Virus record (IMG/VR): IMGVR_UViG_3300023110_001773
Span: 101,638 to 165,637 of that record
Source of the DNA: a virus
DNA: 64,000 nt
Strand: one strand, 5' to 3'
A program made the translations under genes and the position numbers. Positions within the stretch are counted from its first letter, which is position 1. The number at the start of each line of letters is the position of its first letter. The notes beneath the pieces are model-generated. The model was not told the DNA's origin. It saw only the letters and a program-made list of their open reading frames with translations, and did no database searches. Shown piece after piece: positions 23,408 through 54,610 of the stretch.

Positions 23408-23427
23408 ATGTTGCTCCTTTGTGCGGT

Positions 23428-27936: not shown

Positions 27937-28266
27937 TTATGAAAATTCCGAGTGCAAAGCAGATAGTGGGAGTATTTCAGTTGAATTAATAATTCTAAGT
28001 ATATTCCGTTTGAATGGATCGGAAAAAATTGGACTGTCCAAACACATCCTCATTCTATCTATGGCAAATTCTGGTTCCATAGTTCGCAAGTCTTTGCGAA
28101 CCCATTTCTTATTGTCATCCATATCATCTGATATATTTAAGCATATCAAAACAATTGAAATGTCGTCCTCTGTATATAAATTGATTCTATATCCAGTTGG
28201 TTCGGATGATCTTTTATTAGGAAACTTTATTACATTGTCTTTCATTTTTCTTATACTTTTAAACAA
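27937..28266 (-). CDS. Hypothetical protein
   Basis: Coupled to the end of the enzyme island; NVIKFP motif. Confidence 0.55.
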   Translation of the reverse strand: MFKSIRKMKDNVIKFPNKRSSEPTGYRINLYTEDDISIVLICLNISDDMDDNKKWVRKDLRTMEPEFAIDRMRMCLDSPIFSDPFKRNILRIINSTEILPLSALHSEFS

Positions 28267-29102
28267 TCAGCTAAATGCTCTCCCCACTCTATGTGAGCCT
28301 GTAAACACGGATGTCCTCTGGGCATTCGCTTGTCTCCATGTTTATCATTATATTCAGAGAAAACCTTATCCGTTATCATATGTCTATTTATCTCTTTTTC
28401 GATAAAAAGAAGATTATCTTTGTATTCATAATCAAGGTGTTTAAGTTGTTCATGTTTCTTCAAATAAACTTTTTCAAAATATTGTACATTAATTCTTTCA
28501 AGACACTCAACAAAAATAACAGGTATATTATTCCTGTTAGCAATATACAAAATGTCTCTGAGATTATTCATATACTCATAAAAATGAATCCATGAGTGTC
28601 TTTCTCTGAAATATTTTAAAGCAAACTCATGATCACCCCCTCTATCGTGATGGGTGGGAACGACTCTATTGAAAGCACATCCCCTATATCTTTCGTCTAT
28701 GTTACTCCTGCCAATTTCTGCCCAATGTTCTAGTGAATGAAAACCAACTTCTCGAAAAAACCCAGTAGTTCCAAACATACAGAGATGTGTATCAGAAATT
28801 TTTTCATGAATTACATCATTGAAAAATTGTGATCGCATATTATCAATAGAGTTGCCCCTTTGACCTCTATTGTAAACATTAGTTATTCCCAATTTATTAC
28901 AAAGGTGTTGTGGATACGCAAGTTGTTTTTCTATCTTTTCGTGTTTTTGACTCAATAACTCACGTTGGTCTGAGTCTTCGCATTTTCCAATTAGGGGCAA
29001 AAATTCTTCATTTGCTAGTTCTTCTCCAGCAGTAAAAGAACATCCATAAAAATGAATACCATTTATCTTTATTACGTCATCCAAGTATTTTACGGGGTAC
29101 AC
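28251..29102 (-). CDS. SGNH/GDSL-like esterase/acyltransferase
   Basis: GCSFTAG near the N-terminus, N.G..G.S, C-terminal GHP...H. Confidence 0.65.
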   Translation of the reverse strand: MYPVKYLDDVIKINGIHFYGCSFTAGEELANEEFLPLIGKCEDSDQRELLSQKHEKIEKQLAYPQHLCNKLGITNVYNRGQRGNSIDNMRSQFFNDVIHEKISDTHLCMFGTTGFFREVGFHSLEHWAEIGRSNIDERYRGCAFNRVVPTHHDRGGDHEFALKYFRERHSWIHFYEYMNNLRDILYIANRNNIPVIFVECLERINVQYFEKVYLKKHEQLKHLDYEYKDNLLFIEKEINRHMITDKVFSEYNDKHGDKRMPRGHPCLQAHIEWGEHLADCLKV

Positions 29103-30520
29103 ACTTTTACTCCATAGAAATTTTCAAATACATCAGCATCAATTCTATTATTTACAATTGGTTTACCCTTTATGTTCAAACTAGTATTGAGCAACATTGG
29201 ACATCCAGTTTCCTCATACCACTTAGTAAGCAACACATATAATTCTGGATGATGTGCATAACTTACTGTCTGCACTCTACTAGTACCATCCTTATGTACT
29301 ATTGCTGGATATTTTTCTGGTTCTTTACACCTAACAACTTCTTGCATGTATGGAGAATTAAAAAAGACATCAACATCGAAGTGGTGTTGTGCATCACACT
29401 GTCTAATCACTGGAGCAAAAGGTCTAAACTCCTGTCGTCTTTTTATTGAGTTTACTTTATCTTTCATATCTTGGCCTCTAGGATCAGCCAACAGAGACCG
29501 ATTACCCAAAGCACGAGGGCCAAATTCAGCTCTACCAGAAGCTACTCCGACCATCCCAGATGTCATCAATTCATGAAGTACTGCATCGACTGGATATTCT
29601 CCTTTGATGTCGTGTCCCAAATAGGCAGTTTTAAAATCAACTCTCTGTTTTGTACCAGCAAGAACTGCTCCAAGAGAAGACCCAGCATCGCCTGGATTGG
29701 GCATTATCCAATATTTTCTAAAAAAATCTGGTAACAATCTATTGGCAAGACAGTTTAGAGCACATCCACCCATAAAAACCAAATCTCTTTTGCGAGTTAG
29801 TTCTGCTGTTAAATGTAAAAGAGCACCCAACCATTTTTCATATACGGATTGCACTCCAGCAGCAACATCAAAATAGTCTTCTGGTTCTAATTCTGGTCTC
29901 CACCATTTTACTCCACGATGAAATGGTGTTTTGTTTGCAAGTAAATCTGATATTTCCTTTGAAAATCTATATTTGTCTCCATAGGCAGACATTCCCATTA
30001 GAATATATTCATCCTCATTTGCCTTCAATCCAACCCTATCAGTAAAAGCAGAGTAGAACAAACCGAGAGAATTTGGATATTTCCTAGACCAAACTAATTT
30101 GTCATTATCCCAGATGGAAGTAGTAACCCACTCACCAATTGCATCAATAACAAGAGTAGCACAATCATCAAATGGTCTAGTGTAATACCCAGCTGCAAAA
30201 TGACTACGGTGATGATTCCCCCACTTTATTTTGCACGTTGGTTGATATTTTAATTTGTCAAAATAAGACCTTGGATTTACCCAAGGATTTGGTTGTCTGG
30301 AATACAACCTTCTAGTAGCTTTGAGTATGGGGTTCTCATACCAGTACATTTTATCTGGTTCCCCATACTGCAAAGCATCATTCAACAAATTATCATTTAA
30401 ATATTTGTCATTCTTGTAACCAGAGTATCTTTCTGCATGGCTAGCAAAAACTATCTCCCCATCTTTTATGACAGAAAGAGCTGCGTCATGATAACCAGCA
30501 CTGATCCCCCAATTAATCAT
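29090..30520 (-). CDS. O-carbamoyltransferase (NodU/CmcH family)
   Basis: HDAA, HHRSH, DAIGE, GGCALN, PGDAG, EFGPRALGNRS, LLNTSLN. Confidence 0.95.
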   Translation of the reverse strand: MINWGISAGYHDAALSVIKDGEIVFASHAERYSGYKNDKYLNDNLLNDALQYGEPDKMYWYENPILKATRRLYSRQPNPWVNPRSYFDKLKYQPTCKIKWGNHHRSHFAAGYYTRPFDDCATLVIDAIGEWVTTSIWDNDKLVWSRKYPNSLGLFYSAFTDRVGLKANEDEYILMGMSAYGDKYRFSKEISDLLANKTPFHRGVKWWRPELEPEDYFDVAAGVQSVYEKWLGALLHLTAELTRKRDLVFMGGCALNCLANRLLPDFFRKYWIMPNPGDAGSSLGAVLAGTKQRVDFKTAYLGHDIKGEYPVDAVLHELMTSGMVGVASGRAEFGPRALGNRSLLADPRGQDMKDKVNSIKRRQEFRPFAPVIRQCDAQHHFDVDVFFNSPYMQEVVRCKEPEKYPAIVHKDGTSRVQTVSYAHHPELYVLLTKWYEETGCPMLLNTSLNIKGKPIVNNRIDADVFENFYGVKVCTP

Positions 30521-30635
30521 AGATAAATGGGTCTCTCTCCCTAATTTCTTTCATTTTCTTTTTTATTCTTCGGCGCATTTTCCAATCGTCAAACTTTTGT
30601 TTTATACCGAGAAAAAACTTTTTAATTTTTTTCAT
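30513..30635 (-). CDS. 40-aa basic peptide ending RDPFIYD
   Basis: Not in the ORF track. MKKIKKFFLGIKQKFDDWKMRRRIKKKMKEIRERDPFIYD; overlaps both neighbours and fills the gap. Confidence 0.7.
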   Translation of the reverse strand: MKKIKKFFLGIKQKFDDWKMRRRIKKKMKEIRERDPFIYD

Positions 30636-31452
30636 ATCCCAGTTCTCCTAAAATTGTTTTTGTGATAAATTCGTTTTCTTGTTCGCCTGGATGCAGTAAA
30701 TCTCTAGCACGATATTTCAAACCCCCCAAATGAAGTCTTCCAGCTGGATTGAGGTATTTCTCAGTAATAAAGACCTCATCAAAACAATAAAATTTGGAAC
30801 CGTTTCTAGAACATACCGTTTCCAAAGCATCCATATTTTTTTGCATATTATAATTTAGATTTTCCTCATTGAGACACCATTGTGCATAAAAATCTCCGAA
30901 GTCGGAATTTAAAATTTTTGTTTCATCGGATTTTGCTGGAAGAAAATTGTGATAAAATGATATATCTCCATTTCCATTAGAAATTTTAATTTCCTTTCTC
31001 GATTTAGATACTACAAAACATATAACAAGTTTTGGTTTTAATATTGGTATCCAAAAAGACCCCAATCTATAACAAGTATCATTTGATCTGCCTGGTACAG
31101 AAAGGTTACATAAATTCATTCCCAGTTTTTTGGATATCGAATATGCAAAAGTTTTTTCAAGGGGCAACCCAATACCAGTAGTAATACTGCATCCTAGAAA
31201 AACTATATTATTATCAGAGTCATAAAAAGAAGGAGACCGAAAACCATACTCGTTAATTTCATAGGTTATATCAACGTTCTCCCATCTTTTCATAATTTCT
31301 GGGTATTTTAAAAAGTTTTCTTCATACAAACTTTTTTCGTCAGTGGGAAACCATTCTAATACGGTATTAAAATGTAGATCACCAGCAGCGCCTATGCCGG
31401 ACAACCCAAATGCAGTATTATGTTCTGTAGGAACACATTTTATTTTTTGCAT
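30622..31452 (-). CDS. SGNH-like protein
   Basis: INEYGFRS, LGCSITTGIG, NLSVPG.SN, ARDLLHPG. Confidence 0.7.
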   Translation of the reverse strand: MQKIKCVPTEHNTAFGLSGIGAAGDLHFNTVLEWFPTDEKSLYEENFLKYPEIMKRWENVDITYEINEYGFRSPSFYDSDNNIVFLGCSITTGIGLPLEKTFAYSISKKLGMNLCNLSVPGRSNDTCYRLGSFWIPILKPKLVICFVVSKSRKEIKISNGNGDISFYHNFLPAKSDETKILNSDFGDFYAQWCLNEENLNYNMQKNMDALETVCSRNGSKFYCFDEVFITEKYLNPAGRLHLGGLKYRARDLLHPGEQENEFITKTILGELGYEKN

Positions 31453-32624
31453 GACCTAGTATTACCATAATGGACTACAATATGGGATTTAGTTTTTGAT
31501 TCATACGTTCTCCAAGGATCAAAAATAACTACGCCTGGGACTAATTCTTCTTCATTAATTTCATCGGACTCATGCACTCTTACAATAACATCTGCTTGAT
31601 CTATGTCTTTGGTTACATTAGTATTAAATTTTTCGACATAATGTTGCACCAAAAGACTATAACTACCATTTGTATAATCTACATGTGGTTTGTAGGAATC
31701 GGAAGTGAAATAAACTTCATACCCGTGTTCACAAATTGCTCTAGCCATATTTTCTGCTTGAACATCTCTGGCTTTCATAATCTCTGCAAAAAGATCATAT
31801 CCCAAGGATAGATTGTCAGACATGAATCTAAGTGCAATGTTGTCTCTGGGATGACATGCACCACCATCACCCATCCCAGGCTTCATGTACCCAGGCCCCA
31901 TAATCCTCTGAGTACTATCTCTCAAAGCATTTGCAACAACATCCACATCAATATTACCCTGTTGTTCTGCAACATCTTGTATCATGTTTACCAAACCGAT
32001 CTTCGCACTGATAAACGTATTGTAAAATACTTTGATGCACTCGCACTCATCCCATGTACCTATTACATATCGTGGGTCGTTTTCCATAATAGACTCATAA
32101 AACTCTTTGAGTTCTTTTGCATCACCAGTTTCAGTACCATCTTCAGTGCCGATCATAACCATCTCTGGATTCACCATATCCCATGCAACAGTTCCCATGG
32201 CAATAAGGTAGGGATTATATACAAATCGAGTGTTTGTGACTAGAGGTACAAATTCTCTGCGTACAGTGCCAGGCAAAACAGTACTGATAAGAACAAGCAA
32301 CTGATCCTTGTTCATATGATTATTTGCTTCTTCTATAACATGTTGAACAATCCCATATCCAAAGTCTTTTGGTGGTAAGTGATATGTTGGAGTCTCTCCG
32401 CCATATTCTGGATCGTGTGGGGTGGGGACAGCGACAAAAACAATATCTCTATCTGCAACAGTATCTTTGATCGTTGGTCGCATATCAATATCGGTGTCAA
32501 TCGTTGCAACATCATAAGCTACAACATCGTGTCCTTTCTCTGCAATCACCTCTCCACAGGGTTGACCCAGTTTGCCAAATCCAATAAAACCAATTTTCAT
32601 AATGTTTTCAAATCCTCTATCCAT
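31440..32624 (-). CDS. UDP-glucose/GDP-mannose dehydrogenase family protein
   Basis: GFGKLG, VAVPTP, STVLPGT, GGACHPRD; probable start MKIGFIG at 32600. Confidence 0.9.
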   Translation of the reverse strand: MDRGFENIMKIGFIGFGKLGQPCGEVIAEKGHDVVAYDVATIDTDIDMRPTIKDTVADRDIVFVAVPTPHDPEYGGETPTYHLPPKDFGYGIVQHVIEEANNHMNKDQLLVLISTVLPGTVRREFVPLVTNTRFVYNPYLIAMGTVAWDMVNPEMVMIGTEDGTETGDAKELKEFYESIMENDPRYVIGTWDECECIKVFYNTFISAKIGLVNMIQDVAEQQGNIDVDVVANALRDSTQRIMGPGYMKPGMGDGGACHPRDNIALRFMSDNLSLGYDLFAEIMKARDVQAENMARAICEHGYEVYFTSDSYKPHVDYTNGSYSLLVQHYVEKFNTNVTKDIDQADVIVRVHESDEINEEELVPGVVIFDPWRTYESKTKSHIVVHYGNTRSCKK

Positions 32625-33628
32625 TGTTTGTTTTTTGTGATTAATTCTATCATTAGATTACGATTATTTTCCAACCTATTATATATGGAAGAATAAATTC
32701 TGTCAAGTTCTTCTATGGGAGTAAGGCACACCTTTTTTAAATCCTTTACCAAGTTGTCAGTTCTTTTATCTCTATCAACATCAAGTCCAACATTGGGAAA
32801 CAAATCTTCAAAAGTATCGAATCCAAATTCTCTTAGTTTTGGATATAAGTTTCTATCCCCCAAAGCAAGAAAAGGTCTTAATCCTATAATTGGTTTAAAA
32901 ATCTTTTCGCTCAGAAAAACATCTGTATGAGCAGCACTTTCCGTAACAACATTGACAAAGTGGGAGTTCCAATGCGTTGGGTCTCCCAGAGAAATTATAT
33001 CATTTGCTATATGTTTGTCAGATAAAACTTCGTGGTCATAAAACATATTTACCAGTTCTGGTGGTCTATTTTCTTCAAGAATAATTGGGTGTTCAAAATT
33101 GTATCCGGCGTCTCTTTGTAATACAGATATGTTTCCTTTTTTATAAATTGTTTCTTGTTCAAAAATCTTATTTAACAAGTGCCTTCTATGATCATTGGGT
33201 TTGTTATTTAAACACATAAAATGATATTGTAAATTTGGTTTTGATGTGTAGCATTCATCAAAAAAATATTTTTTGTAAAAATCTATAAATTCAACCCAAA
33301 AACTGAAATAGTGTCCCTCAGAAGTGTTTCCAATATGAGTGCAATCAAATCTATATTGTAGAAATATATGAGCAGCAGTACACACTGGTTCGCAGTGTGT
33401 ATTCATCCAATCCATACCAGAATATAGAAATGCTCTTTTTTTGTCTGTAGTAATTTGCCAATCAACAAATTTTTGAAATGTTATTGGATCATTTATCCAA
33501 GTGGTATCAATAAGACAAACATCATCTGGTATAAGTTCAAGAATCCTTTTGAAAAAAACCCTGTCAAAATCTGTAATCTGGTTGTTGCCAGATTTTATTG
33601 ATGGCCCATTCGTAAAATAATCAGTCAT
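32597..33628 (-). CDS. Putative glycosyltransferase-like protein (paralog 1)
   Basis: CLNNKPNDHR and VVTES..FLSEKIFKPIIGLRPF..GFDTF motifs. Confidence 0.5.
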   Translation of the reverse strand: MTDYFTNGPSIKSGNNQITDFDRVFFKRILELIPDDVCLIDTTWINDPITFQKFVDWQITTDKKRAFLYSGMDWMNTHCEPVCTAAHIFLQYRFDCTHIGNTSEGHYFSFWVEFIDFYKKYFFDECYTSKPNLQYHFMCLNNKPNDHRRHLLNKIFEQETIYKKGNISVLQRDAGYNFEHPIILEENRPPELVNMFYDHEVLSDKHIANDIISLGDPTHWNSHFVNVVTESAAHTDVFLSEKIFKPIIGLRPFLALGDRNLYPKLREFGFDTFEDLFPNVGLDVDRDKRTDNLVKDLKKVCLTPIEELDRIYSSIYNRLENNRNLMIELITKNKQWIEDLKTL

Positions 33629-35330
33629 ATAATCTTAGTTCATTAAAAATATTTCTATGTTCAGCGATACGAACAGAAGAACAGTTTTTAAAATGTTCGT
33701 AGTTTCTATAGAGTTTAGGTCTGACCGACTCGTACAGTCTAAATTTTTCTGCATGGGTTAGTGTTTTCCATCTTTCTAAATTTCTAATAATATGTGACAT
33801 TCTTTTCTTCGGGTTTAAAATAGAATCATACGTCTCATCAAACATTTCTGGAAATGTTTCGTACCCCATATCTCTGAGGTGTTCTAATGTGCCTGGTGAA
33901 CCCACTACCATGAATGGAATTCTATAAGCAAAACACTTATAAATCTTCTCTGTAATCTGCAAACAATTACTATCATCTAAACCGAAAAGAGTTTCACTAA
34001 CTAAAGCAAAAAATGATTTTCTGTAGTGATCCAACGTGATCCTTCTATCATCTTTGGTCACCGAGTCCGTATTGATGTCAATAGATATAATATCATTTTT
34101 ATGCCAAAATTTATAGAAAAATTCTCGTTGTGTTTCAAATTCCATGATCGTGTTGGGCGCAGTCCACTCGTTAGAAACCCAATCTTCTATAGTATCTTCC
34201 CTGTATTCAGATTTAGTATAAAAATATTTGAACTTCCAATAAAGTTCTGGATGTTCTTCTGGGTTCTCGTCTCTGGCTAAAAAACTAATGTAAGAGTTAT
34301 TATTGTCATATCCCAATCTAAATAATTCAGAGACAATTACTGGTCTATGGGGTCTTACTCTTGCATTCAGGCAGATCAAATCTCTTTCTTTTTCCGTGGA
34401 TGGGGGGACATCTGCCATAACTTCATCAAGTCTGATATCTCTATATTCGTCTGCCCATTGCAATCTAGGCCAGCCGGGTTTATTGGTATCTTGTTTAGAT
34501 TTTTTAACTTGTTCTGGTAAATCTTCAAACTCGATGTAAGCATCTCGATGTTTGGAACAATGATAATCACCAAAACTTTCAACAGATTTGTACTTATCAA
34601 AGTTGTGGGAAGGATTGAATCTCCAACAAGTTCTGGAAACATATTGTTTGAAGTAATGTTCATGGAAAAAATCAATGCCAAAACATTTTTTAAATTCAAA
34701 TTCTATTTCTGGATTGGCCCTCTTCCACCTGTCAAAGTTTTTTTGTACATTAAAATCACCGTAGATAAAATAATGTACTCCTCCACTTAGGTCATAATCT
34801 ACAATTTTTTTAACAAGTCTAGTCATCCAAGGATTATCGTTGACAACATCTCTCAAAGATGCCATCCCAAATCCCTCGTGCGGAAACCAGAAAACCATTG
34901 CCATCTTTCTTTCTCTAACCATCTGCAAGGCATGATGATTACATCCACAGAAAATGTCTTCTACGTTCACATGTACTTGTACAATTTCTATGAAATAAAG
35001 GTTGTCTCTGTCAACGTAAGTATCATTCCAATCAGAAATATCTTTCATTTCAAATGGAATGCCCATTCTTTCATAAAGGTCAACAATATCAGTAGGGCCG
35101 AAACAAACTTTATTATGTGGGTCTGATGAACTATTTTTTTGTGGATATTCGCCTTTAGCCAACTCCCTTATAGGGGGCAGTTTATCAAACCAGAGGATAG
35201 GGGGTTGGTTAGAAATTTTTCTGGGATTAGTTTTAAGTACAGATATCTCTTTTCTAAGAGATTGTACTTCATCCAGAACTTTTTGTAATAAAGTCTGGAT
35301 ATTCCCAAGGTCTGTTTCTGATGCCGCCAT
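33621..35330 (-). CDS. Putative glycosyltransferase-like protein (paralog 2)
   Basis: CLNARVRPHR and LVSET..ITEKIYK..PFMVVG..GYETF..DETYD motifs. Confidence 0.5.
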   Translation of the reverse strand: MAASETDLGNIQTLLQKVLDEVQSLRKEISVLKTNPRKISNQPPILWFDKLPPIRELAKGEYPQKNSSSDPHNKVCFGPTDIVDLYERMGIPFEMKDISDWNDTYVDRDNLYFIEIVQVHVNVEDIFCGCNHHALQMVRERKMAMVFWFPHEGFGMASLRDVVNDNPWMTRLVKKIVDYDLSGGVHYFIYGDFNVQKNFDRWKRANPEIEFEFKKCFGIDFFHEHYFKQYVSRTCWRFNPSHNFDKYKSVESFGDYHCSKHRDAYIEFEDLPEQVKKSKQDTNKPGWPRLQWADEYRDIRLDEVMADVPPSTEKERDLICLNARVRPHRPVIVSELFRLGYDNNNSYISFLARDENPEEHPELYWKFKYFYTKSEYREDTIEDWVSNEWTAPNTIMEFETQREFFYKFWHKNDIISIDINTDSVTKDDRRITLDHYRKSFFALVSETLFGLDDSNCLQITEKIYKCFAYRIPFMVVGSPGTLEHLRDMGYETFPEMFDETYDSILNPKKRMSHIIRNLERWKTLTHAEKFRLYESVRPKLYRNYEHFKNCSSVRIAEHRNIFNELRLYD

Positions 35331-40749: not shown

Positions 40750-41740
40750 GAATCAAACCCTCTGGAATTTCCATTTCTTTAAATTTTTCATGTATCAAAA
40801 AAACCGATTCAATCATAGTTGGCCATGGTCTGGGGATGTGTTTCGGAAATGGAGGAGGCCCAGTATCAGTTTTTGCAAAATTGAAAGCCCATTCAAAATT
40901 TTTCAATCTTATTTCTCTAGTAATATCCGATAATTCAGAAACTTCATATGTATTAATCAAATTATCAAGTTGTTCTATTATCATTTCACCACGTTTTTCG
41001 TTATCAATAACCCTATCGAAAGAGTAATCAATTTCTGGGTGTGGCGTATATCCACACATAAACAACCTTTGGTAAGTTTTTGGTGCTGCATAAATCAAAG
41101 GAATCTTTCCATATACAATTGGCCTAAAAGTTTTCTCTGTTAAAAAAATTACATTTTCATCTGTTTCGGTAACAAAATCAATCAAAACTCTCGGATAAAA
41201 TTCTGGGCACAATTCCCTCTCTGAATACCACTTAACAATTTTATAAACGTTTAATTTTTCTCCAGCATGATACTTACAATACTCATTAATAATAGGAGAT
41301 ATTTTTTTCCACAAAACATCTCTGTGGGGCCTTCTCCTAGCCCACATAGTAATAAATGAAATATCATGGTCAGAATTTAAATTTTTTTCTATGTCTTTCC
41401 AAAAAATCTCTTCAGAAATCTGGTAGTCTTTTCCTTGATGTAACATATAGTACCAAAAAACATACATCCACCACCAGTAATATACTCTGGCGTCAATCAG
41501 AGAAAATACTTTACATGGCATTTTGTTTACATCTAGGAATTTTATCTCGTTGTCATTTGGGTCTCTATAAGCTATTTCAATCTCTTGTGGCATATAAATA
41601 TTTACAATACTATCACGAGCTTCTCCAGTAGCCAACTTATATCCATTGATTAGGGTTTGTCCGTATACTGGGTACATAACCCCGTCAATGAACATACAAT
41701 ATCCTGCTGGATCAGCAGTACCCTCACCTTCAAACATCAT
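40739..41740 (-). CDS. Putative glycosyltransferase-like protein (paralog 3)
   Basis: RRPHR and FVTET..FLTEKTFRPI..IDYSFD motifs. Confidence 0.45.
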   Translation of the reverse strand: MMFEGEGTADPAGYCMFIDGVMYPVYGQTLINGYKLATGEARDSIVNIYMPQEIEIAYRDPNDNEIKFLDVNKMPCKVFSLIDARVYYWWWMYVFWYYMLHQGKDYQISEEIFWKDIEKNLNSDHDISFITMWARRRPHRDVLWKKISPIINEYCKYHAGEKLNVYKIVKWYSERELCPEFYPRVLIDFVTETDENVIFLTEKTFRPIVYGKIPLIYAAPKTYQRLFMCGYTPHPEIDYSFDRVIDNEKRGEMIIEQLDNLINTYEVSELSDITREIRLKNFEWAFNFAKTDTGPPPFPKHIPRPWPTMIESVFLIHEKFKEMEIPEGLILER

Positions 41741-42272
41741 AAAATCCGCTGACTTGTAAAGTATATTTGTTTGTCAACCCAGCGTTGCAACTTAGGTGGA
41801 GTGGTTCGCTGTCCCACAAATACCCCTCACCAGCATTCCAATGAGTACAACTAACCCAGTCATCCCCATGTTTGTACTGAAGAAAATGTCCTACTTGCCA
41901 GTCTTCTAAGAATATATTTGCCCTGACTTTTGGTCTATTATCATCTGGATAGAGATTTTTAAATTTGAAAAAAGTATCCCTGTGTAAAGTAACAACATTT
42001 CCAGGCGGTTGAAGAATTGCACTGATTGTTTTCACATCAATGTTTAAAAGACTTCCTATCTCCTTATAATCAATGTCATCTTCCGTCCACCAAATTTGTT
42101 GTATTCTTGTATTGTCTTCATGGTAAGATTCTGGAAATCCATCTCCAATAGTTTCATGAATGTCCGTCTGTTCTCTTTTTTGATAAGAAATACAACTGCC
42201 AAAATGTTGAGAGAAGTCACCATTTAAAAACTTATTCAGATCATAGTTGAAATTAATTTTTTGAAATATCAT
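41730..42272 (-). CDS. 2OG-Fe(II) oxygenase-like cupin
   Basis: QPPG..LHRD (HxD), distal H..N.G...KYTLQV. Confidence 0.7.
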   Translation of the reverse strand: MIFQKINFNYDLNKFLNGDFSQHFGSCISYQKREQTDIHETIGDGFPESYHEDNTRIQQIWWTEDDIDYKEIGSLLNIDVKTISAILQPPGNVVTLHRDTFFKFKNLYPDDNRPKVRANIFLEDWQVGHFLQYKHGDDWVSCTHWNAGEGYLWDSEPLHLSCNAGLTNKYTLQVSGFYDV

Positions 42273-42273
42273 T

Positions 42274-45139: not shown

Positions 45140-46443
45140 GATATCTCATCATAAAAATATTGTAATTCTGGAAACGCATCATGCCAACTAACATTTCTGC
45201 GTTTATCGTGTTCATCGACAAAAAGTTTAAAATCTTTTCTATGAGTATTTAGGTCTTCTTCAACAAACCTATTTTTTTCTACCCATTTAACAACAGTTTT
45301 AAATTTTTGCAACTCACCAGAATTAAATTTTAAATTGTCGCCGTCATCCGTATTCTGTTCCATGAATTTTTCAGCATCTTTCAACATATTCATCATATTG
45401 TCGTCAAGTATTAAAGCAGAAAGATGTTTGGGATTTGTCATATAAGGAGTATCAAGTTTTACATCGCCAAGTCTTTTTAATTCCAAAACATATCCAAGAA
45501 ATTCTTTGAACTTAGGAATACTCAGGAGATTAAATGTTACCATTAATCCAACTGGAATACTAGCATTCAAAATTTGAACCAGATTGATTTCAAATGTTTT
45601 CCAATTCAGTCCGTGGCGAATCCATTCTGCCTGTTCACCCAAAGTATCAACACTGGCATAAATCTTGGGTGACTTCATCTCGGACATGGTTTTTATTATT
45701 CTATCAACCCGTCTCGTAGAAACAGATAGGTTGCTGTTGACATGAAATGCAATATTTTCTCCGTTGGGATGATTGCGAATAAACTTTGCCAGTTTGAATG
45801 TATGTTCGCTCAACAAAGGTTCGCCGCCAGTAATCCTAATTACTTGTAAGTGCATGACTGCTTCTCTTATCCACTTCCAAAACTTGTCATACATTTCACT
45901 GTTTTCTGGCCACAAGTTTTCTCTTCCATGAGAAACATACTGGGAATTGTTTTCTGGGTGTATCAAAGGATACTCGCCAAATTTTTTGATTTCTTCGTGC
46001 AATGAAGAACTGTTCTGCGTGGAACAATAACTGCACTTCATCTGACACTTGTTACTAAAACTCATCTCCAAGTATTTTGGATATACTGGTTCGTCCCACT
46101 GCATCCTAGCAGTAGTCTCAATAATATCTGATTGCATCTCCGTGTATATTGGAGTTAATGCAATCCTCGGACTAATAGAACCACTGTCTTCAACATTCCA
46201 ACAATAAAAACACTCCACTGGGCGACCACCTTCCAGCATTGCTTTTCTTTGTCGCATCTTTTGTTCTGTGTTGTGGAAGTCTTCTTCCAAATTTATGTGT
46301 CTTTGTGGACAATGGAAACAAGAATGACTTTGAGCAGAACTGAGATGCATTTCCAAATGATGCCATTTGAGCACACAAAATCCAGGCCCGACTTTATCGT
46401 ACCTGTCCTGCAACTCTTTGTAATATTCAACGGGAGTTTTCAT
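45136..46443 (-). CDS. N-terminal twitch-domain radical SAM protein 7
   Basis: FCVLKW..SCFHC..CFYCW; CQMKCSYC; TGGEP. Confidence 0.88.
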   Translation of the reverse strand: MKTPVEYYKELQDRYDKVGPGFCVLKWHHLEMHLSSAQSHSCFHCPQRHINLEEDFHNTEQKMRQRKAMLEGGRPVECFYCWNVEDSGSISPRIALTPIYTEMQSDIIETTARMQWDEPVYPKYLEMSFSNKCQMKCSYCSTQNSSSLHEEIKKFGEYPLIHPENNSQYVSHGRENLWPENSEMYDKFWKWIREAVMHLQVIRITGGEPLLSEHTFKLAKFIRNHPNGENIAFHVNSNLSVSTRRVDRIIKTMSEMKSPKIYASVDTLGEQAEWIRHGLNWKTFEINLVQILNASIPVGLMVTFNLLSIPKFKEFLGYVLELKRLGDVKLDTPYMTNPKHLSALILDDNMMNMLKDAEKFMEQNTDDGDNLKFNSGELQKFKTVVKWVEKNRFVEEDLNTHRKDFKLFVDEHDKRRNVSWHDAFPELQYFYDEIS

Positions 46444-47173
46444 TGTCTTCTAAAATTTGGGTGAACATGTTTTTATCAGAAATCAAATTTGCAAAATGTT
46501 TTGTGTCTTTTGGTAGACACTTGCCCCCAAATCCACGTTTACCATCTGGGCCGGGGACATCCCAATGTGTCCAACCAAATTCATTCTCAACCACATACAA
46601 TTTTTTTATATTATTGTAATCGGCACCATTTTTTTCACAAACATCATAAACATGATTTGCAAACATGACTCTAGCTGCAAGTAAAGAATTTCTACTCATC
46701 TTATATATCGCAGCTTCTCTGGGTGAGACACGATGAGCGGTTTTCATGAATGGCAAAGCGTACTGAAGGGCAAAAAAATCTTCTTCATCACTAGCACCAA
46801 TTATCACCGATTTGCGATGATCCATTGTATCCTCTTTCCAGTGATTTTCTCTCAAAAACTCCGGCATGTAAATCCAATCATCTTCCAATTGATCTGGGCC
46901 TAGAGTGCTTCTGACAACAATCTTACCACCACGGTTTGATTTGCTAGTTTTACTCCTAACTTCCCTAATAGCATCCTTGACTACAGATTTTGACAAACCC
47001 TTTTTGGTAAAATCATTAATAGGAGTTGGAACACAAATAAAAGTATATTGAACATCAGACCAAGATTTAATTTCATAACCCAAAGCTGGATCGTGTATCA
47101 AACACTCATGTTCACTAAAAAGCAATTCCGTTGATTTACCAACAAAACCATAACCAACTATAGCAATTTTCAT
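46427..47173 (-). CDS. Short UDP-glucose dehydrogenase-like protein (no C-terminal UDP-binding domain)
   Basis: GYGFVG, ICVPTP, PEFLRE, GFGGKCLPKD; ends shortly after the catalytic Cys. Confidence 0.85.
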   Translation of the reverse strand: MKIAIVGYGFVGKSTELLFSEHECLIHDPALGYEIKSWSDVQYTFICVPTPINDFTKKGLSKSVVKDAIREVRSKTSKSNRGGKIVVRSTLGPDQLEDDWIYMPEFLRENHWKEDTMDHRKSVIIGASDEEDFFALQYALPFMKTAHRVSPREAAIYKMSRNSLLAARVMFANHVYDVCEKNGADYNNIKKLYVVENEFGWTHWDVPGPDGKRGFGGKCLPKDTKHFANLISDKNMFTQILEDNENSR

Positions 47174-47763
47174 TCTTTGTAACCTGTCACCGTAAATCTT
47201 TTATATGTTGTATTGTTTGGGCCCGGCAGTTCCATTTCCTCTGCGTGTGTCACCGAACACTTGTTTCGCATAACAAAATCATCTAAATTATTAAAGGGTC
47301 TTATGTGTTCTGGTATGATTAAATTGTTGCCTTGCATGATAACAAAAGTACCGTCTGGAATATTGTTATACCAAGAATCAAAAGTTTCTTGATCAACGTG
47401 TTCCGTACTTGTATTGATAACAACATCTGGGTCTTTGTCGTAAGAAAAGTTTTTCATGTCGGCAGTAATAAAATTAACAAACTGACTAGAAAAATATTTG
47501 TTGCCGACTTCTTCACACTTTGCATCAACATCAATAGAGTTGACATCAGAGACAAACCTGTTATCTTCAATCATCTTTGCAAGGACGCCATACCACCCAC
47601 CGAAGATATAACATGGGCCGTGCAAGAATTCTGGGTAGAGTTCAATTACTCTTTCTTTGCTTTGTAATTGGGTATCCCAAAAACATTCTAGGAATCGTCT
47701 GTCGTCTGGGTTTTCTCTCATATAATTAAACCAAGAAGACATTGTATCAATAGAAAAAATCAA
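47170..47763 (-). CDS. Class I SAM-dependent methyltransferase-like protein
   Basis: FGGWYG..SIDVD..ADM..INTSTEH. Confidence 0.75.
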   Translation of the reverse strand: MIFSIDTMSSWFNYMRENPDDRRFLECFWDTQLQSKERVIELYPEFLHGPCYIFGGWYGVLAKMIEDNRFVSDVNSIDVDAKCEEVGNKYFSSQFVNFITADMKNFSYDKDPDVVINTSTEHVDQETFDSWYNNIPDGTFVIMQGNNLIIPEHIRPFNNLDDFVMRNKCSVTHAEEMELPGPNNTTYKRFTVTGYKE

Positions 47764-48377
47764 GATGTTCTCCTAACAACATTAGAAACTGGATTCCAAA
47801 CAAACCCATCTTCTAATGTCCAATAATAGATGTATTGCAGTAGATCACTATTTGAATCGACTTGAAAGAAATATCTATCGTCTGTTTTCAATGCTTTATA
47901 CCAATCACTATGCCACATATCCTTGATTTGTTTTTGCAACGGGGTAACTGCGGCACCAAATCTTTTATGTTGGTACATCAAATTTATCGCACGATTGTTG
48001 ATATCATGAGTAAAGTATAACACCTTAAACCCCCTTTGTCTAGCCCATTCTATCTGATAGGGTAGAATTGGTATACCCAACCATGCTGGTCTAAACTTCT
48101 TTGCAATGTGAAGTCTACATATTCTTGCGGATATTTCTGGGTCGCTGGTGTAATGACTGGATTCTGCCACACTAATACATGCAAGTTCACCATCTACATA
48201 AACCAACCAAGTTTCCCCATCAATGTTATCGGGATCATACTTGTCATAAGCTAAACTATCGTTGCCCTCTGCAAAGGACAATTCTCTAAAAGTTTCTACT
48301 TCTGATTTTTTATCTGGGGCGTATGTGGTTATTTCAAAGCCAGACATTCGATGTCTTCTTGGGATTTCAATGTCCAT
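47760..48377 (-). CDS. GNAT-family acyltransferase
   Basis: ARICRLHIAKKFR..QIEWARQRG..N motif. Confidence 0.65.
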   Translation of the reverse strand: MDIEIPRRHRMSGFEITTYAPDKKSEVETFRELSFAEGNDSLAYDKYDPDNIDGETWLVYVDGELACISVAESSHYTSDPEISARICRLHIAKKFRPAWLGIPILPYQIEWARQRGFKVLYFTHDINNRAINLMYQHKRFGAAVTPLQKQIKDMWHSDWYKALKTDDRYFFQVDSNSDLLQYIYYWTLEDGFVWNPVSNVVRRTS

Positions 48378-49027
48378 ACCAAAGCAACTCTATTCTCCGT
48401 TCCACGATTCTCCACGGAATGTCTAAATCCTGTATTTAAGAAGTAGACTGACCCATCCGCTTTGAGATTGTAAGATTGTTTCTCACCATTATACCAAAAA
48501 AAGTTTGTTGTCCCTTCTGTACCTGATATGGGACAAATGACACGAACGCCATAAGAAGGATCATAGTCAATATGGGGCGAGATATCTTTGCCTGGCTCCA
48601 GTAAGTGTATCCTAGCACGACACACTTCTGCTTTGAAATTTTCTGTAATAGCCTTTTCAAAATAACTCCCAGTATAATCTTCCAAAGGATAGTCCCACAA
48701 CATTTCATTTGCAGTTGGTGGTAAATTGTCACCCTTTGCGGATTTGTTTCTCACCCTCTCAATTTTTGATTTACCAATATCAGTAATTTCAAACTCTTCT
48801 GCCTTCTTCATATTTTCTGGAGACATTGACATCAGAGGTATTTCATGAAGAGTGCTGTAAATCTGTGCAAGGAAACCCTGATCGTGCAACTTGGTTATGC
48901 CTGGGTTTGCATCGTAAATATTCTGCCACTTGTCTCCTATACGAGACAATTCTTCTTTCATCATCCCAATATCAAACTTAATATTTGGAATTGGCGCACA
49001 GGCAGGCAACTGTCTTTTCTTAAGCAT
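48329..49027 (-). CDS. Aspartyl/asparaginyl beta-hydroxylase-like 2OG-Fe(II) oxygenase
   Basis: RARIHLLEPG..PHID..NTGFRHSVEN.G..RVALV. Confidence 0.8.
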   Translation of the reverse strand: MLKKRQLPACAPIPNIKFDIGMMKEELSRIGDKWQNIYDANPGITKLHDQGFLAQIYSTLHEIPLMSMSPENMKKAEEFEITDIGKSKIERVRNKSAKGDNLPPTANEMLWDYPLEDYTGSYFEKAITENFKAEVCRARIHLLEPGKDISPHIDYDPSYGVRVICPISGTEGTTNFFWYNGEKQSYNLKADGSVYFLNTGFRHSVENRGTENRVALVWTLKSQEDIECLALK

Positions 49028-49751
49028 GGAAAGGTTCTCTCAAAATAGCTGCATCGAAAACGTGACACATATAATTATTTTCATCCAATCCATCAATCCA
49101 ATGTACACCATTTACAGAATTGAATTCTAACAATAACATTTCACCTTTTTTTGGAAAGTCTATACTAACAACACCTTCATCTGGGACAGGAGTTATAAAT
49201 GGTAACCTTAACATATGGTATAAGTCCTTGTTCTCTACCCAAGGAGTGTTGTCGGTATGAAATATATGAAACTTTTCCGTGACTGGCAAATCTTGTTTCA
49301 ATGGATAGATGACCGTAAACGTTCTTCTATTTTCAACACCTTCAATAAAGTTTACCGCATGGGCGTGTTGAAAAAGTTTTGCGGTTGGGGGTCTGTATTG
49401 ATTATTTCCGAACAAAAAAGTAAACGATCCTTGTGCAGACTCTAGATAGTGTTGTACAGTTAATTTTGCTCTATCGTGTATCTCGTTAAAGGGGAAATCT
49501 TCAATCAATATTTTTTTGTCCGATTGAGATTGTACAGACTTTTCTCCATATGTATCCGTGAGAAAATAATAACTGGTATCAATAATTTCTTTCAGTTCAT
49601 CTTCTGGAATCATGCTGCAAATGTGTTGCAACACATGTTTTGGCATGTGTGGATGAGTTTCCAGTTGGTGTTTGTAGGGTATTCTTTCACAGATGGAAAA
49701 ATCAAATTCCACAAAAGGAAATTCAATATAATCATGATTAACTAAATTCAT
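49020..49751 (-). CDS. Putative cupin/2OG oxygenase-like protein
   Basis: HAH plus distal H with a beta-strand pattern; weak. Confidence 0.4.
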   Translation of the reverse strand: MNLVNHDYIEFPFVEFDFSICERIPYKHQLETHPHMPKHVLQHICSMIPEDELKEIIDTSYYFLTDTYGEKSVQSQSDKKILIEDFPFNEIHDRAKLTVQHYLESAQGSFTFLFGNNQYRPPTAKLFQHAHAVNFIEGVENRRTFTVIYPLKQDLPVTEKFHIFHTDNTPWVENKDLYHMLRLPFITPVPDEGVVSIDFPKKGEMLLLEFNSVNGVHWIDGLDENNYMCHVFDAAILREPFHA

Positions 49752-50458
49752 TTTGAAATCCTAAAAGTGTCCTCAAACAAACCTATCAACATGCCACCCA
49801 CATCATACTTGTGAAACTGCCAGTCCCACGGTTGTTTGTGATGATTTGAGTGATATCCTTCTCCAAGAGTAGCAATACCCAACCAATGATCGCTTCTGGG
49901 TTTTCCTCCACGGTGAGAGTGTATAAAGACAATTGATCCGATGAGTTTAGCAAATCCTGCTGGGGCCAACCATGCATAGATCACTGCAAATGGATCAATT
50001 AGGAAGAGTGTTGCAGCCCACACAACAATAACATGCCAGTAATATCGGTGTTGCGCTTTTAGAAAGTCATTTCTCAACAGATCAGTGACAAACTTCATTC
50101 TAGGTAAAGATTTTACCTGAGAAAAATAACAACGAATAAATCCACGATACTCAGGCGAGTGTGGGTCTTTTTCTGTATCAGCAAACTTGTGGTGTTCTCG
50201 GTGTTGTGCTGCCCATGCTAGTGCTGGCCCAACCATCATGATGTGAGCAAAAAAGGTCATCAAATAAACAAACCAATTTGGAGCAGTAAAACAATAGTGA
50301 GACCAATACCTATGATATCCTACTGTGATACCCAACATGATACCGCAATACATAAAGAATGTAATAGCCCACTCCATCGGAGTAGCAAAGAACATTCCTA
50401 ATACTGAAAGTTGTGCAATTACTTGTCCAGCAAGTAGTGAGTTTGGAGTTGGTTTCAT
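49748..50458 (-). CDS. Membrane fatty acid desaturase (delta9-type)
   Basis: His boxes HRYWSH, HREHH, HSNHH; DPHSP; GEGYH. Confidence 0.92.
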   Translation of the reverse strand: MKPTPNSLLAGQVIAQLSVLGMFFATPMEWAITFFMYCGIMLGITVGYHRYWSHYCFTAPNWFVYLMTFFAHIMMVGPALAWAAQHREHHKFADTEKDPHSPEYRGFIRCYFSQVKSLPRMKFVTDLLRNDFLKAQHRYYWHVIVVWAATLFLIDPFAVIYAWLAPAGFAKLIGSIVFIHSHRGGKPRSDHWLGIATLGEGYHSNHHKQPWDWQFHKYDVGGMLIGLFEDTFRISK

Positions 50459-50806: not shown

Positions 50807-50840
50807 TATAAATATACCATAGAGAGAACCCAAATGTCAA
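50807..50840. promoter_or_regulatory. Overlapping divergent promoters: late TATAAATA (+, 50807-50814) and sigma70-like TTGACA-N18-TATATT (-)
   Basis: Both consensus elements are read directly in the intergenic gap. Confidence 0.65.
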
Positions 50841-54594: not shown

Positions 54595-54610
54595 AAATGG
54601 GTGAAGAATA

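Follow-up and report, generated by a model that had tools for sequence, protein, structure and literature searches.

A conserved block of seven twitch radical SAM paralogs and predicted GT-B glycosyltransferases in a marine T4-like phage, a candidate module for sugar editing and glycan assembly

Extent and layout of the block

We analyzed a 64,000-nt window of the genome of an uncultured marine T4-like phage (165.6 kb, rated 100% complete by CheckV); positions below are those of the window, and all block genes lie on the minus strand. The ORF list showed 24 co-oriented minus-strand ORFs at 27937-50784, and one additional 40-aa ORF brought the block to 25 genes. Overlaps of 1-62 nt were found at 21 of the 23 ORF junctions, in agreement with an earlier note on this DNA that had described more than 20 co-oriented, mostly overlapping genes. 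That note had set the upper boundary at 50458, whereas the first block gene is g24 (50458..50784, 108 aa; phrog_27048 of unknown function at E 7.8e-20, no Pfam match), and the block begins with its start at 50784, behind a promoter-like site. This sigma-70-type site (50811..50840, minus strand) consists of TTGACA, an 18-nt spacer, TG and TATATT, an 11/12 consensus match with an extended -10, and is located ~27 nt upstream of the g24 start. A perfect TTGACA-17-TATAAT was present at 32706-32678, upstream of the g05 start. The site at the head suggests that the block is transcribed early by the host RNA polymerase. Since promoter-like sites overall were not above chance (56 observed vs 71 expected), we infer this timing from the single strong matches and from the replication and auxiliary genes in the neighbourhood, gp32, gp59 and phoH. 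The final block gene, g01 (27937..28266, 109 aa), lies directly ahead of phoH and is conserved at 69-77% in relatives. Plus-strand genes adjoin the block, and the T4-type late-promoter motif TATAAATA at 50807 belongs to them. A hydropathy scan detected transmembrane-like segments within the block in the desaturase g23 alone, and none of the block proteins matched a PKS, NRPS or transporter family, as the note had stated.

Radical SAM paralogs and their cellular homologs

Seven ORFs matched NF033640 (N_Twi_rSAM, radical SAM with an N-terminal twitch domain) at 295-410 bits against a cut-off of 170 bits, and the alignment indicated that all of them retain four N-terminal cysteines, CxxxCxxC and GGEP; the seven twitch radical SAMs first read from the sequence were thus confirmed. 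Each paralog has an auxiliary-cluster domain with four cysteines in N-terminal position. The paralogs split into subtype A, comprising g08 (35269-36435), g09 (36428-37672), g10 (37665-38933) and g12 (39448-40749) at 323-410 bits, and subtype B, comprising g15 (42274-43767), g16 (43760-45139) and g17 (45136-46443) at 295-321 bits, which are mutually 30-36% identical. A structure search with the g16 model (pLDDT 93.5) gave BlsE among the best matches (Z 13.8, rmsd 3.2, 220 aligned), followed by DesII and MoaA (both Z 13.1). These enzymes act on sugars or nucleotides, and the g16 fold resembles them. However, the peptide-acting SkfB (Z 13.8) and anSME (Z 12.7) tie with them, and the fold therefore does not select a sugar substrate.

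Cellular homologs were found in 78 genome_contigs loci, most of them Bdellovibrionota MAGs or chromosomes. Among 126 neighbour proteins from 18 loci, the commonest after more radical SAMs were Glycos_transf_2 (8) and Glycos_transf_1 (4), so that GT1 or GT2 accounted for 12 of the 126; DegT, carbamoyltransferase, epimerase/GDP-mannose dehydratase, ABC-2/ABC, flagellin and methyltransferases followed with 2 each. In one locus (L079), radical SAMs stand beside an ABC-2 Wzm permease, two GT1, a carbamoyltransferase and a DegT sugar aminotransferase. The cellular homologs are thus mostly located in Bdellovibrionota polysaccharide loci, which is an association and not proof.

Sugar, glycosyl-transfer and decorating enzymes

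Two sugar-nucleotide dehydrogenases had been proposed, and both were recovered as NDP-sugar types with a catalytic-Cys motif. The full-length enzyme, g05 (31440..32624, GGACHPRD), matched PF03721, PF00984, phrog_9148 (E 6.7e-96) and, in the PDB, GDP-mannose dehydrogenase (8e-18) and UDP-glucose dehydrogenase (4.5e-17). The other 6-dehydrogenase, g18 (46427..47173, GGKCLPKD; family matches, sequence and PHROGs), is truncated: the NAD and central domains are present while the C-terminal nucleotide-sugar domain is missing, and it is shortened in every relative also (249-268 aa). An NAD-dependent sugar epimerase/dehydratase (24474..25334, minus strand; PF01370 138.6 bits, PF16363 110 bits) lies outside the stretch delimited by the note, co-oriented with the block and several genes past phoH; it is a possible supplier for the block's pathway.

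The AF2 model of g06 (32597..33628, 343 aa; pLDDT 90.6, pTM 0.90) has a GT-B fold, and among the 50 VIA matches listed nearly all were glycosyltransferases or other GT-B-type sugar transferases. No Pfam domain was found in any of 103 homologs of the family. The match to T4 beta-glucosyltransferase (Z 11.9, rmsd 4.8, 265 aligned) was followed by glycogen synthase (Z 11.3), T4 alpha-glucosyltransferase (Z 11.2) and GT10 fucosyltransferase (Z 10.7). Residues 315-558 of g07 (33621..35330, 569 aa), a C-terminal GT-B donor domain behind an N-terminal region without an assigned fold, aligned with the g06 family by hhalign (probability 99%, E 2.1e-18). The C-terminal part of g13 (40739..41740, 333 aa), which lies in a variable cassette, is akin to the donor-binding domain of the g06 family by hhalign (probability 88%, E 3e-6, 93 columns) and blastp. 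Profile alignment and modelling thus identify g06, g07 and g13, noted earlier as three GT-like paralogs, as predicted glycosyltransferases of a new GT-B family. Since these three would be the assembling enzymes, the description of the island as having no scaffold synthase does not fit a glycan pathway.

The two T4 glucosyltransferases among the top VIA rows for g06 raise the question of DNA hypermodification, a wholly cytoplasmic pathway in which the GT-B enzymes would add sugars to phage DNA, with the adduct elaborated by the radical SAM and decorating enzymes. Many other GT-B enzymes, however, score within 1 Z unit of those two matches, and the cellular homologs are located in polysaccharide loci with exporters. 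No ThyA/dNMP hydroxymethylase, C5 DNA methylase or TGT/DpdA was found in the whole, 100% complete genome, and the genome therefore shows no known way of making a base that could be glycosylated; a Tet_JBP search of the genome gave no match, and its controls gave none either. The DNA option, already regarded as weakened, lost further ground, and we consider it highly improbable.

The proposed carbamoyltransferase is g03 (29090..30520), of the NodU/NovN/TobZ O-carbamoyltransferase type (PF16861 167 bits, PF02543 118 bits, phrog_1601 E 7e-91; PDB NovN 5.6e-48 and TobZ 4e-38). Its nearest solved relatives, NovN, GdmN and TobZ, carbamoylate small molecules, and BlsE, DesII and AprD4 among the g16 structure matches belong to antibiotic sugar pathways. 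The product could accordingly be a soluble glycoside resembling aminoglycoside or nucleoside antibiotics, freed at lysis or acting intracellularly, for which nucleotide sugars would pass through GT-B transfer, radical SAM tailoring, carbamoylation, methylation and acetylation. The lack of carrier-lipid and export genes would suit such a product. Genome-wide, on the other hand, there was no sugar-phosphate cyclase match and no DegT aminotransferase, and the setting of the cellular homologs is Wzm-type polysaccharide loci and not antibiotic clusters; we judge this reading very improbable.

The remaining decorating enzymes were supported to varying degrees. The class-I SAM methyltransferase-like g19 (47170..47763; GGWYG, acidic D78/D80 and DVVINTSTEH in the alignment) matched PDB 3dtn, a methyltransferase, at E 1.1e-4, with spermidine synthases weaker, giving modest support to that assignment. 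For g20 (47760..48377, 205 aa), a candidate GNAT-like acyltransferase from atlas features and alignment, the features scored 0.98 and 10 of 10 best matches were GNAT, but the PDB GNAT match had an E of 0.75, which leaves it a lead. Likewise, the two SGNH proteins are leads, having characteristic motifs but PDB matches of E 0.4-1.1: g02 (28251..29102, 283 aa) has invariant GCS..G.EL and HP...H and a closest atlas cluster auto-named SGNH/GDSL (0.97), against PDB acetyl-xylan esterases at E 0.4, and g04 (30622..31452, 276 aa; GCSITTG, GRSND and DLLHP), a variable cassette missing from relatives, has a weak PDB esterase match (E 0.82). The desaturase held up: g23 (49748..50458) is a membrane fatty-acid desaturase of the delta-9 type (PF00487, 49.5 bits) with the His boxes HRYWSH, HREHH and HSNHH. 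Of the two or three 2OG oxygenases suggested, g21 (48329..49027) was retained as an Asp/Asn beta-hydroxylase-like (LpxO-type cupin) enzyme (PF05118, 25.3 bits; cut-off 22.6), while g14 and g22 had no Pfam or PDB match. Both of the latter are variable cassettes: g14 (41730..42272, 180 aa) also lacked NCBIfam and PHROGs matches and has a 56% homolog in L019, and g22 (49020..49751, 243 aa) lacked a PHROG match and is missing between the g23 and g21 orthologs in L008. The sulfotransferase-like label was not borne out, as g11 (38930-39451, 173 aa), a variable cassette between g12 and g10, had no match in Pfam, NCBIfam, PHROGs or the PDB.

Conservation, the 40-aa ORF and the proposed pathway

Collinear copies of the block, at 31-91% amino acid identity and with phoH adjoining every time, occur in six or more independent contigs from marine metagenomes, and the block is therefore not a chimera. 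Rather than assorting randomly, the genes of L001, L002, L004-6 and L008 kept the order g21-g20-g19-g18-g17-g16-g15-[slot]-g12-g10-g09-[slot]-g08-g07-g06-g05-[slot]-g03-g02-g01-phoH, and every radical SAM paralog had a one-to-one ortholog there. In relatives, a variable slot holds an AAA_18 kinase and a CTP_transf_like cytidylyltransferase. The g09 ortholog P0019 is indexed by 135 blocks of the assembly collection. Ortholog identity was high for the radical SAMs g15, g16 and g12 (77-90%), g21 (82-91%) and g20 (75-84%), and low for g07 (36-52%), g06 (42-60%) and g02 (27-35%).

The 40-aa ORF (30513..30635, minus strand), which the earlier note had missed, ends in an invariant RDPFIYD when relatives are compared. 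Its stop overlaps the g03 start, and its translation is coupled to that of the next gene. The orthologs in L001, L002, L004-6 and L008 have the C-terminus in common, with a synonymous Arg codon change. This ORF might be the scaffold of a peptide-centred product, either as a RiPP-like precursor in which the twitch radical SAMs form cross-links, as in MftA/MftC and PqqA/PqqE, as a tyrosine primer for a glycan built by the GT-B enzymes, or as a HypE-like tail modified by the carbamoyltransferase. Its presence in all close relatives with the heptapeptide invariant, the coupling, and the peptide- or protein-acting SkfB and anSME at the top of the g16 matches are consistent with such a product. Complex prediction for g03, g06 and the peptide lends weak support (at least 61% of contacts common between runs, partner pLDDT at least 54): the score was 0.33 against 0.09 for the best control and 0.01 when g03 was replaced, but the tool holds so weak a pass more often wrong than right. 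Of 80 solved complexes 58 passed its mark, as did 2 of 110 mismatches; at scores up to 0.60, it was passed by 7 of the 80 and by both of these mismatches. Moreover, RDPFIYD was found neither in the distant islands (L007, L009 and L010) nor in any Bdellovibrionota locus, although they keep the radical SAMs; no leader-recognition (RRE) domain or peptidase family was found with Pfam and NCBIfam, and a pure RiPP reading leaves the sugar-nucleotide enzymes unexplained. We regard a peptide product as quite improbable.

We favor, with moderate confidence and from sequence and models, a conserved cytoplasmic module for sugar editing and glycan assembly that would rely on the host for precursors and export. 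Support for the note's options of virion or exported-protein glycans and of host LPS/lipid remodelling comes from the GT-B fold of g06, from both NDP-sugar dehydrogenases, from the O-carbamoyltransferase of sugar type and from the polysaccharide-locus setting of the cellular homologs. In the proposed pathway, g05 and g18 would oxidise host UDP- or GDP-sugars to uronic acids, the seven radical SAMs would perform oxygen-independent C-H chemistry on sugar units, the GT-B enzymes would pass the products to an acceptor, and g03, g19, g20, g02 and g04 would carbamoylate, methylate and (de)acylate the glycan. The radical SAM substrates are probably nucleotide sugars, because the radical SAM genes are the most conserved and the transferases the most divergent. 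Genome-wide, we found no initiating glycosyl-phosphate transferase (Bac_transf), sugar nucleotidyltransferase (NTP_transferase), ABC-2 exporter (ABC2_membrane) or GT2. Without a phosphoglycosyl transferase, sugar nucleotidyltransferase and exporter, the phage would need precursors from the host and, for a product that leaves the cytoplasm, the carrier lipid and export of the host as well. Of the promoter-proximal genes, g21 (LpxO-like) and g23 probably work separately on host lipids, and g21-g24 may be unrelated auxiliary genes merely on the same transcript.

As acceptor, we consider a host envelope glycan (O-antigen, capsule or glycoprotein) that is remodelled during infection the most likely, with a virion protein next. 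By the same sugar chemistry, a phage structural protein (capsid, tail or fibre) would be glycosylated in the cytoplasm before assembly, and neither carrier lipid nor exporter would be needed; the absence of an initiating transferase, flippase and ABC-2 exporter from the genome fits such a cytoplasmic acceptor, and the block enzymes are soluble bar the desaturase. The block core is kept in contigs that differ widely elsewhere, as an acceptor carried by the phage itself would predict; the adjoining plus-strand genes also bear the late-promoter motif. Nevertheless, the block's own promoter motifs are sigma-70-type and not late-type, it sits among gp32, gp59 and phoH, and an exporter (Wzm/Wzt) is present in the cellular homolog loci, and we consider a structural-protein acceptor unlikely.

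In the favored sugar-editing module, the radical SAMs might oxidise sugar units to keto sugars, epimerise them, dehydrate them or decarboxylate them, as is the case for BtrN, DesII, AprD4 and BlsE.

Phage lineage and conservation of the block

The window forms the final 64 kb of a single IMG/VR record of 165,637 bp, for which CheckV gave a completeness of 100%. PHROG matches to the baseplate wedge gp6, the hub/lysozyme gp5 and the tail tube cap indicated a T4-like myovirus. The closest gp6 proteins were those of Pelagibacter and Methylophilales myophages at only 35% identity, which together with the T4-like structural genes points to a distinct, uncultured marine lineage. We dropped a cyanophage origin in view of these nearest gp6 proteins and because psbA was not found in the record. 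The block comprises 24 minus-strand ORFs, from g24 (50784) down to g01 (27937), and its neighbours are phoH, at its end, and gp32 and gp59 (22493-24218). Consecutive ORFs overlap by 1-62 nt at 21 of the 23 junctions, and the sole real gap, of 101 nt, contains an extra ORF of 40 aa. The GC content of the block (0.34-0.40) was close to that of the window (0.35-0.45) and gave no sign of recent acquisition. When compared by megablast with 50,697 phage records, the complete block had no match. We also detected an eighth radical SAM gene outside the block (20922-22427, minus strand), adjoining gp32; its 501-aa product matched Radical_SAM at 49.7 bits, carried a B12-binding-like N-terminus at 19.5 bits, which is below the cut-off, and had no PHROG match.

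The gene order of the block, with phoH at its end, was identical in six relative contigs (two from IMG/VR and four from ENA or Logan) at 31-91% identity. The earlier note had allowed that the genes might assort randomly among relatives or that the island was an assembly chimera; collinear orthologs in independent contigs ruled out both. Every radical SAM paralog had a one-to-one ortholog in the relatives, and variation was limited to three slots, filled in the window by g13 and g14, by g11 and by g04, and in the relatives by an AAA_18 kinase with a CTP_transf_like cytidylyltransferase or by other unknown ORFs. The distant islands, on contigs of 100-206 kb, retained g16, g15, g09, g08, g05 and g06/g07-like genes. 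In one related island (L009:4714-21191, on a marine contig of 102 kb), at least 10 radical SAM genes lie within 21 kb, indicating that the family grows well past seven copies in some phages. In the assembly collection, 135 blocks are indexed as containing the g09 ortholog P0019. Conservation was highest among the radical SAM proteins (g15, g16 and g12 at 77-90% to their orthologs) and lowest among the transferases and an esterase-like protein (g07 at 36-52%, g06 at 42-60% and g02 at 27-35%). Such a gradient is usual in systems where constraint acts on the sugar-precursor enzymes and the acceptor-specific ones drift.

A consensus-matching promoter-like site (TTGACA-18-(TG)TATATT) was located ~27 nt upstream of g24. 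The 3' end of g06 contains a perfect sigma-70 consensus (TTGACA-17-TATAAT; 32678-32706, minus strand), 54 nt ahead of the start of g05; it may act as an internal promoter driving the block's distal half. Since the overall counts of promoter-like sites were not above chance, early expression is something that we infer. A T4-type late-promoter motif, TATAAATA (50807-50814, plus strand), faces the divergent plus-strand genes. The four genes at 50866-55678 (plus strand), encoding products of 359, 739, 162 and 355 aa, had PHROG matches of unknown function only and could be fibre or host-recognition genes.

Radical SAM paralogs and sugar-handling enzymes

Seven block ORFs matched the NCBIfam model NF033640 (N_Twi_rSAM, 'twitch domain-containing radical SAM protein') at 294.9-410 bits, the curated cut-off being 170 bits, and in the whole genome this model matched in exactly these seven places (g08, g09, g10, g12, g15, g16 and g17). 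The CxxxCxxC motif (C111, C115 and C118) and the GGEP motif (G170-P173) were invariant in both radical SAM alignments, A1 and A8. A Pfam SPASM match at residues ~5-85 precedes the Radical_SAM match at ~107-290, placing the auxiliary domain at the N-terminus. Four N-terminal cysteines (C5, C24, C64 and C67) were invariant in all seven proteins in A1, which suggests a fully ligated auxiliary cluster, as in BtrN. Fully ligated auxiliary clusters serve electron transfer in oxidations. The paralogs fell into two subtypes, g08/g09/g10/g12 and g15/g16/g17. The model of g16 (pLDDT 93.5) showed a standard radical SAM core with near-equal structural matches to BlsE (Z 13.8; rmsd 3.2, 220 residues aligned), SkfB (13.8), DesII (13.1), MoaA (13.1) and anSME (12.7); AprD4 was among the Foldseek matches. 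As g16 ties with both sugar-acting and peptide-acting enzymes, the fold alone does not pick the substrate class. In the literature searched we found nothing on the accession NF033640, the family name or the N-terminal SPASM arrangement, and nothing relevant on twitch proteins with nucleotide sugars or on the enzyme combination of the block. By tblastn, g09 had no match in plasmids, and among isolated phages only ~24% matches in KVP40-like Vibrio phages and the Ralstonia phage RsoM2USA; the neighbourhood of K566, an isolated-phage match, consisted of hypothetical proteins throughout.

Several other block genes encode enzymes of sugar metabolism. The g03 product matched Carbam_trans_N (118.5 bits) and Carbam_trans_C (167.3 bits) and, in the PDB, NovN (5.6e-48) and TobZ (4.3e-38), and is predicted to be an O-carbamoyltransferase of the NodU/NovN/TobZ type; it scored 121 bits against the NodU equivalog, whose cut-off is 1000, and is thus not NodU itself. 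Both g05 and g18 carry PF03721 and PF00984, with the catalytic motifs GGACHPRD and GGKCLPKD, respectively. By these features g05 is a predicted NDP-sugar 6-dehydrogenase; its last 110 residues matched no model, and its PDB alignments ended near residue 300. The g18 product, of 248 aa, ends right after the catalytic Cys motif, and its orthologs are as short in all relatives; lacking the C-terminal nucleotide-sugar-binding domain, it is not a standard member of the 6-dehydrogenase family.

The glycosyltransferase candidates were recognized from structure and profile comparison. None of the 103 homologs of g06 carried a Pfam domain, and comparison of the g06 family with the PDB by sequence gave nothing significant. 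The g06 model (pLDDT 90.6) had two facing Rossmann-like domains in a GT-B fold, and nearly all of its 50 best VIA rows (Z 8.2-11.9) were glycosyltransferases or other GT-B-type sugar transferases. The leading rows, tied within ~1 Z unit, were T4 beta-glucosyltransferase (Z 11.9; rmsd 4.8, 265 residues aligned), glycogen synthase (11.3), T4 alpha-glucosyltransferase (11.2) and a GT10 fucosyltransferase (10.7); GT10 enzymes appeared as structural rows alone (Z 9.8-10.7), and the top Foldseek rows were mostly GT-B enzymes at weak E-values of 1e-3 to 2e-2. In profile comparison, residues 315-558 of g07 matched the donor-side domain of g06 (probability 99%, E 2e-18), as did part of g13 (88%, E 3e-6). 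The three GT-like paralogs proposed in the earlier note are therefore real and constitute GT-B enzymes of an undescribed family.

Ten ORFs (g01, g02, g04, g06, g07, g11, g13, g14, g19 and g20) had no Pfam, PHROGs or NCBIfam match. The g19 family matched a class-I methyltransferase structure in the PDB (E 1.1e-4), which modestly supports the methyltransferase-like label proposed from the sequence. By sequence, g20, g02, g14, g22, g11 and g04 had no significant PDB match. For g20, a GNAT candidate with a weak PDB match, the language-model neighbours were GNAT proteins. In g02 and g04, candidate SGNH/GDSL proteins, the Ser of block I, the Gly/Asn of block III and the His of block V were visible (PDB E 0.4-1.1), and an atlas neighbour was auto-named SGNH. 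The proposed sulfotransferase (g11) and additional 2OG oxygenase (g14 and g22) labels found no PDB match in their support. At the proximal end of the block, g21 is an Asp/Asn beta-hydroxylase-like cupin by Pfam and g23 is a desaturase with delta-9-type histidine boxes; apart from the desaturase, no block protein had transmembrane-like segments. It may be that g21-g24 are auxiliary genes with a separate role, directed at lipids, that share the transcript. However, a Bdellovibrionales MAG (L083:6698-8214) also has adjacent g21-like and g23-like genes (32% and 31%), 2.8 kb from a subtype-B radical SAM gene, so the hydroxylase-desaturase pair is linked outside phages too. Besides its Pfam match to Asp_Arg_Hydrox, g21 (48329-49027, minus strand) matched phrog_274, labelled 'DNA endonuclease V' (E 2.7e-5), a label that looks unreliable for this cupin family.

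Cellular homologs and the likely product

Scanning a single genome for each prokaryote species, we identified 78 loci with subtype-B relatives at 31-58% identity. Most of their record titles were Bdellovibrionota MAGs and chromosomes of up to 2.2 Mb, including Bdellovibrio, Bacteriovorax and Halobacteriovorax. Among 126 neighbours in 18 of the loci, the commonest families after further radical SAM proteins were GT2 (8) and GT1 (4), followed with two each by DegT, carbamoyltransferase, epimerase/GDP-mannose dehydratase, ABC/ABC-2, flagellin and methyltransferases. In L079, a Halobacteriovoraceae MAG, both radical SAM subtypes stand beside a Wzm (ABC-2) permease, two GT1 enzymes, a carbamoyltransferase and a DegT aminotransferase. 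This locus and the neighbour families indicate that the radical SAM family keeps company with glycan synthesis. L072, a 1.9-Mb chromosome, contained seven radical SAM homologs, a g16-like match and six further tandem ORFs, and tandem arrays were also present in L069, L077 and L085; the occurrence of these homologs in Bdellovibrionota could reflect gene exchange or point to the phages' host range. Mis-binning of phage contigs may explain some loci that have the full gene set on contigs of ~40-250 kb. By gene content this may apply to L011, L019, L021 and L022 (42-248 kb, binned as Flavobacteriaceae, Haliscomenobacter and Legionellales MAGs), which carry homologs of g16, g15, g09, g08, g12 and g03 at 34-56%.

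Taken together, the findings on the block are best accounted for by a cytoplasmic module for sugar editing and glycan assembly that uses host nucleotide sugars. The dehydrogenases would make uronic acids, the seven radical SAM enzymes would perform distinct C-H functionalisations on sugar units, the GT-B enzymes would transfer the resulting sugars, and the carbamoyl-, methyl- and acyl-handling enzymes would decorate the product. The genome does not hold a self-contained O-antigen or capsule locus as judged by PF02397 (Bac_transf), PF00483 (sugar-1-phosphate nucleotidyltransferase) and PF01061 (ABC-2), which like GT2 and DegT aminotransferase were absent genome-wide in searches whose controls responded. 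We favour as acceptor a host envelope glycan exported by the host machinery, given the type of promoter motif, the presence of exporters in the cellular loci and the precedent in PMC7029224; a virion protein comes second.

Another option in the earlier note was hypermodification of the phage DNA. In favour of a T4-like hmC glucosylation, the g06 GT-B fold is common to the T4 beta- and alpha-glucosyltransferases, and both systems occur in a T4-like phage; on the other hand, the identity to g06 is 6-8% and the match is not separable from those to dozens of GT-B enzymes. A dCMP hydroxymethylase homolog is absent from this genome. With controls responding, the whole genome gave no match to PF00303 (ThyA/dNMP hydroxymethylase), PF00145 (C5 DNA methylase) or PF01702 (TGT/DpdA), leaving the hmC/hmU, TET-GT and 7-deazaguanine systems without a base-creating enzyme; PF12851 (Tet_JBP) was not matched either, in a search whose controls were equally silent. 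With PF00303, PF00145 and PF01702 missing from a complete genome, DNA hypermodification is now unlikely, and the block raises no new DNA-modification question.

A peptide-centred product was considered on account of the 40-aa ORF (30513-30635, minus strand), whose position between g05 and g03 is constant and whose stop overlaps the start of the carbamoyltransferase gene g03. Its C-terminus, RDPFIYD, was invariant in the six close relatives (L001, L002, L004-6 and L008), with one arginine codon differing, while the Lys/Glu-rich N-terminus varied; the motif was not found in the distant islands or the cellular loci. Complex prediction for g03, g06 and the peptide scored 0.33 (best control 0.09; 0.01 with g03 replaced), with at least 61% of contacts shared between runs and a partner pLDDT of at least 54. 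Of 80 solved complexes, 58 attained the mark used, as did 2 of 110 mismatches; at scores up to 0.60 it was attained by just 7 of the solved complexes and by both of these mismatches. The prediction weakly supports a g03-peptide contact, and passes of this kind are rated as more often wrong than right. Pfam and NCBIfam scans gave no RRE or peptidase family typical of RiPPs, with nine block ORFs unassigned. HypF docks HypE, and by analogy the carbamoyltransferase might dock the peptide tail, with the product of the radical SAM line built on or coupled to the peptide. We regard this as an interesting reading of low probability. If true, phages would have a new class of product, a peptide-primed glycoconjugate or cofactor-like molecule, and a radical SAM family of thousands of members would gain its first substrates.

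Relation to known systems

Cyanomyophages such as P-SSM2 carry LPS gene clusters, and in marine T4-like phages 'LPS genes' have been recognized for two decades; to our knowledge, no product of them was ever identified. The block shows, for one widespread lineage, that the conserved centre of such a cluster is formed by seven non-redundant radical SAM proteins and not by glycosyltransferases; the same family occurs in polysaccharide loci of predatory Bdellovibrionota. If these enzymes act on sugars, they point to a large number of oxygen-independent carbohydrate reactions that are still untapped, and g05 with individual radical SAM genes would form a defined, clonable set with which to find those reactions. 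The block is also directly relevant to the ways in which abundant ocean phages alter cell surfaces or their own particles, with effects on superinfection, adsorption and grazing.

Phage glycan and 'LPS' clusters were already known, as were radical SAM cassettes in pelagimyophage variable regions, which are mentioned but not analysed in the description of the LPS/O-antigen-type host recognition cluster (PMC7029224). The block resembles the pelagimyophage and cyanomyophage clusters as a large co-oriented set with glycosyltransferases and UDP-glucose 6-dehydrogenases in a marine T4-like phage. It differs from the PMC7029224 cluster in having a Pfam-less GT-B family in place of GT8, in its position beside phoH, gp32 and gp59, and in its conserved core, in which seven paralogs, all from one uncharacterised radical SAM family, each have a one-to-one ortholog; gp6 of HTVC008M is only 35% identical to that of this phage. 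This fixed core with inverted domain architecture is new, as are its linkage to the Pfam-less GT-B family and a truncated dehydrogenase and its kinship with Bdellovibrionota polysaccharide loci. The ABC-transporter loci of the Bdellovibrionota share with the block both radical SAM subtypes, the carbamoyltransferase and GT-B (GT1) transferases, but add Wzm/Wzt export, a DegT aminotransferase and GT2, all three of which the phage lacks.

All seven paralogs share with NF033640 an N-terminal four-Cys domain followed by CxxxCxxC and GGEP. No reaction is assigned to that family, and a phage tandem of seven members in two subtypes was undescribed in the literature searched. With BlsE, DesII, BtrN, AprD4 and MoaA the common feature is the partial TIM-barrel radical SAM core; the identity of g16 to them is only 10-16%, its matches tie with the peptide-acting SkfB, anSME and SuiB, and the auxiliary domain is C-terminal in those enzymes whereas it is N-terminal here. 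BlsE acts on a glucuronic-acid substrate, and the radical SAM genes of the block are linked to dehydrogenases that would form uronic acids.
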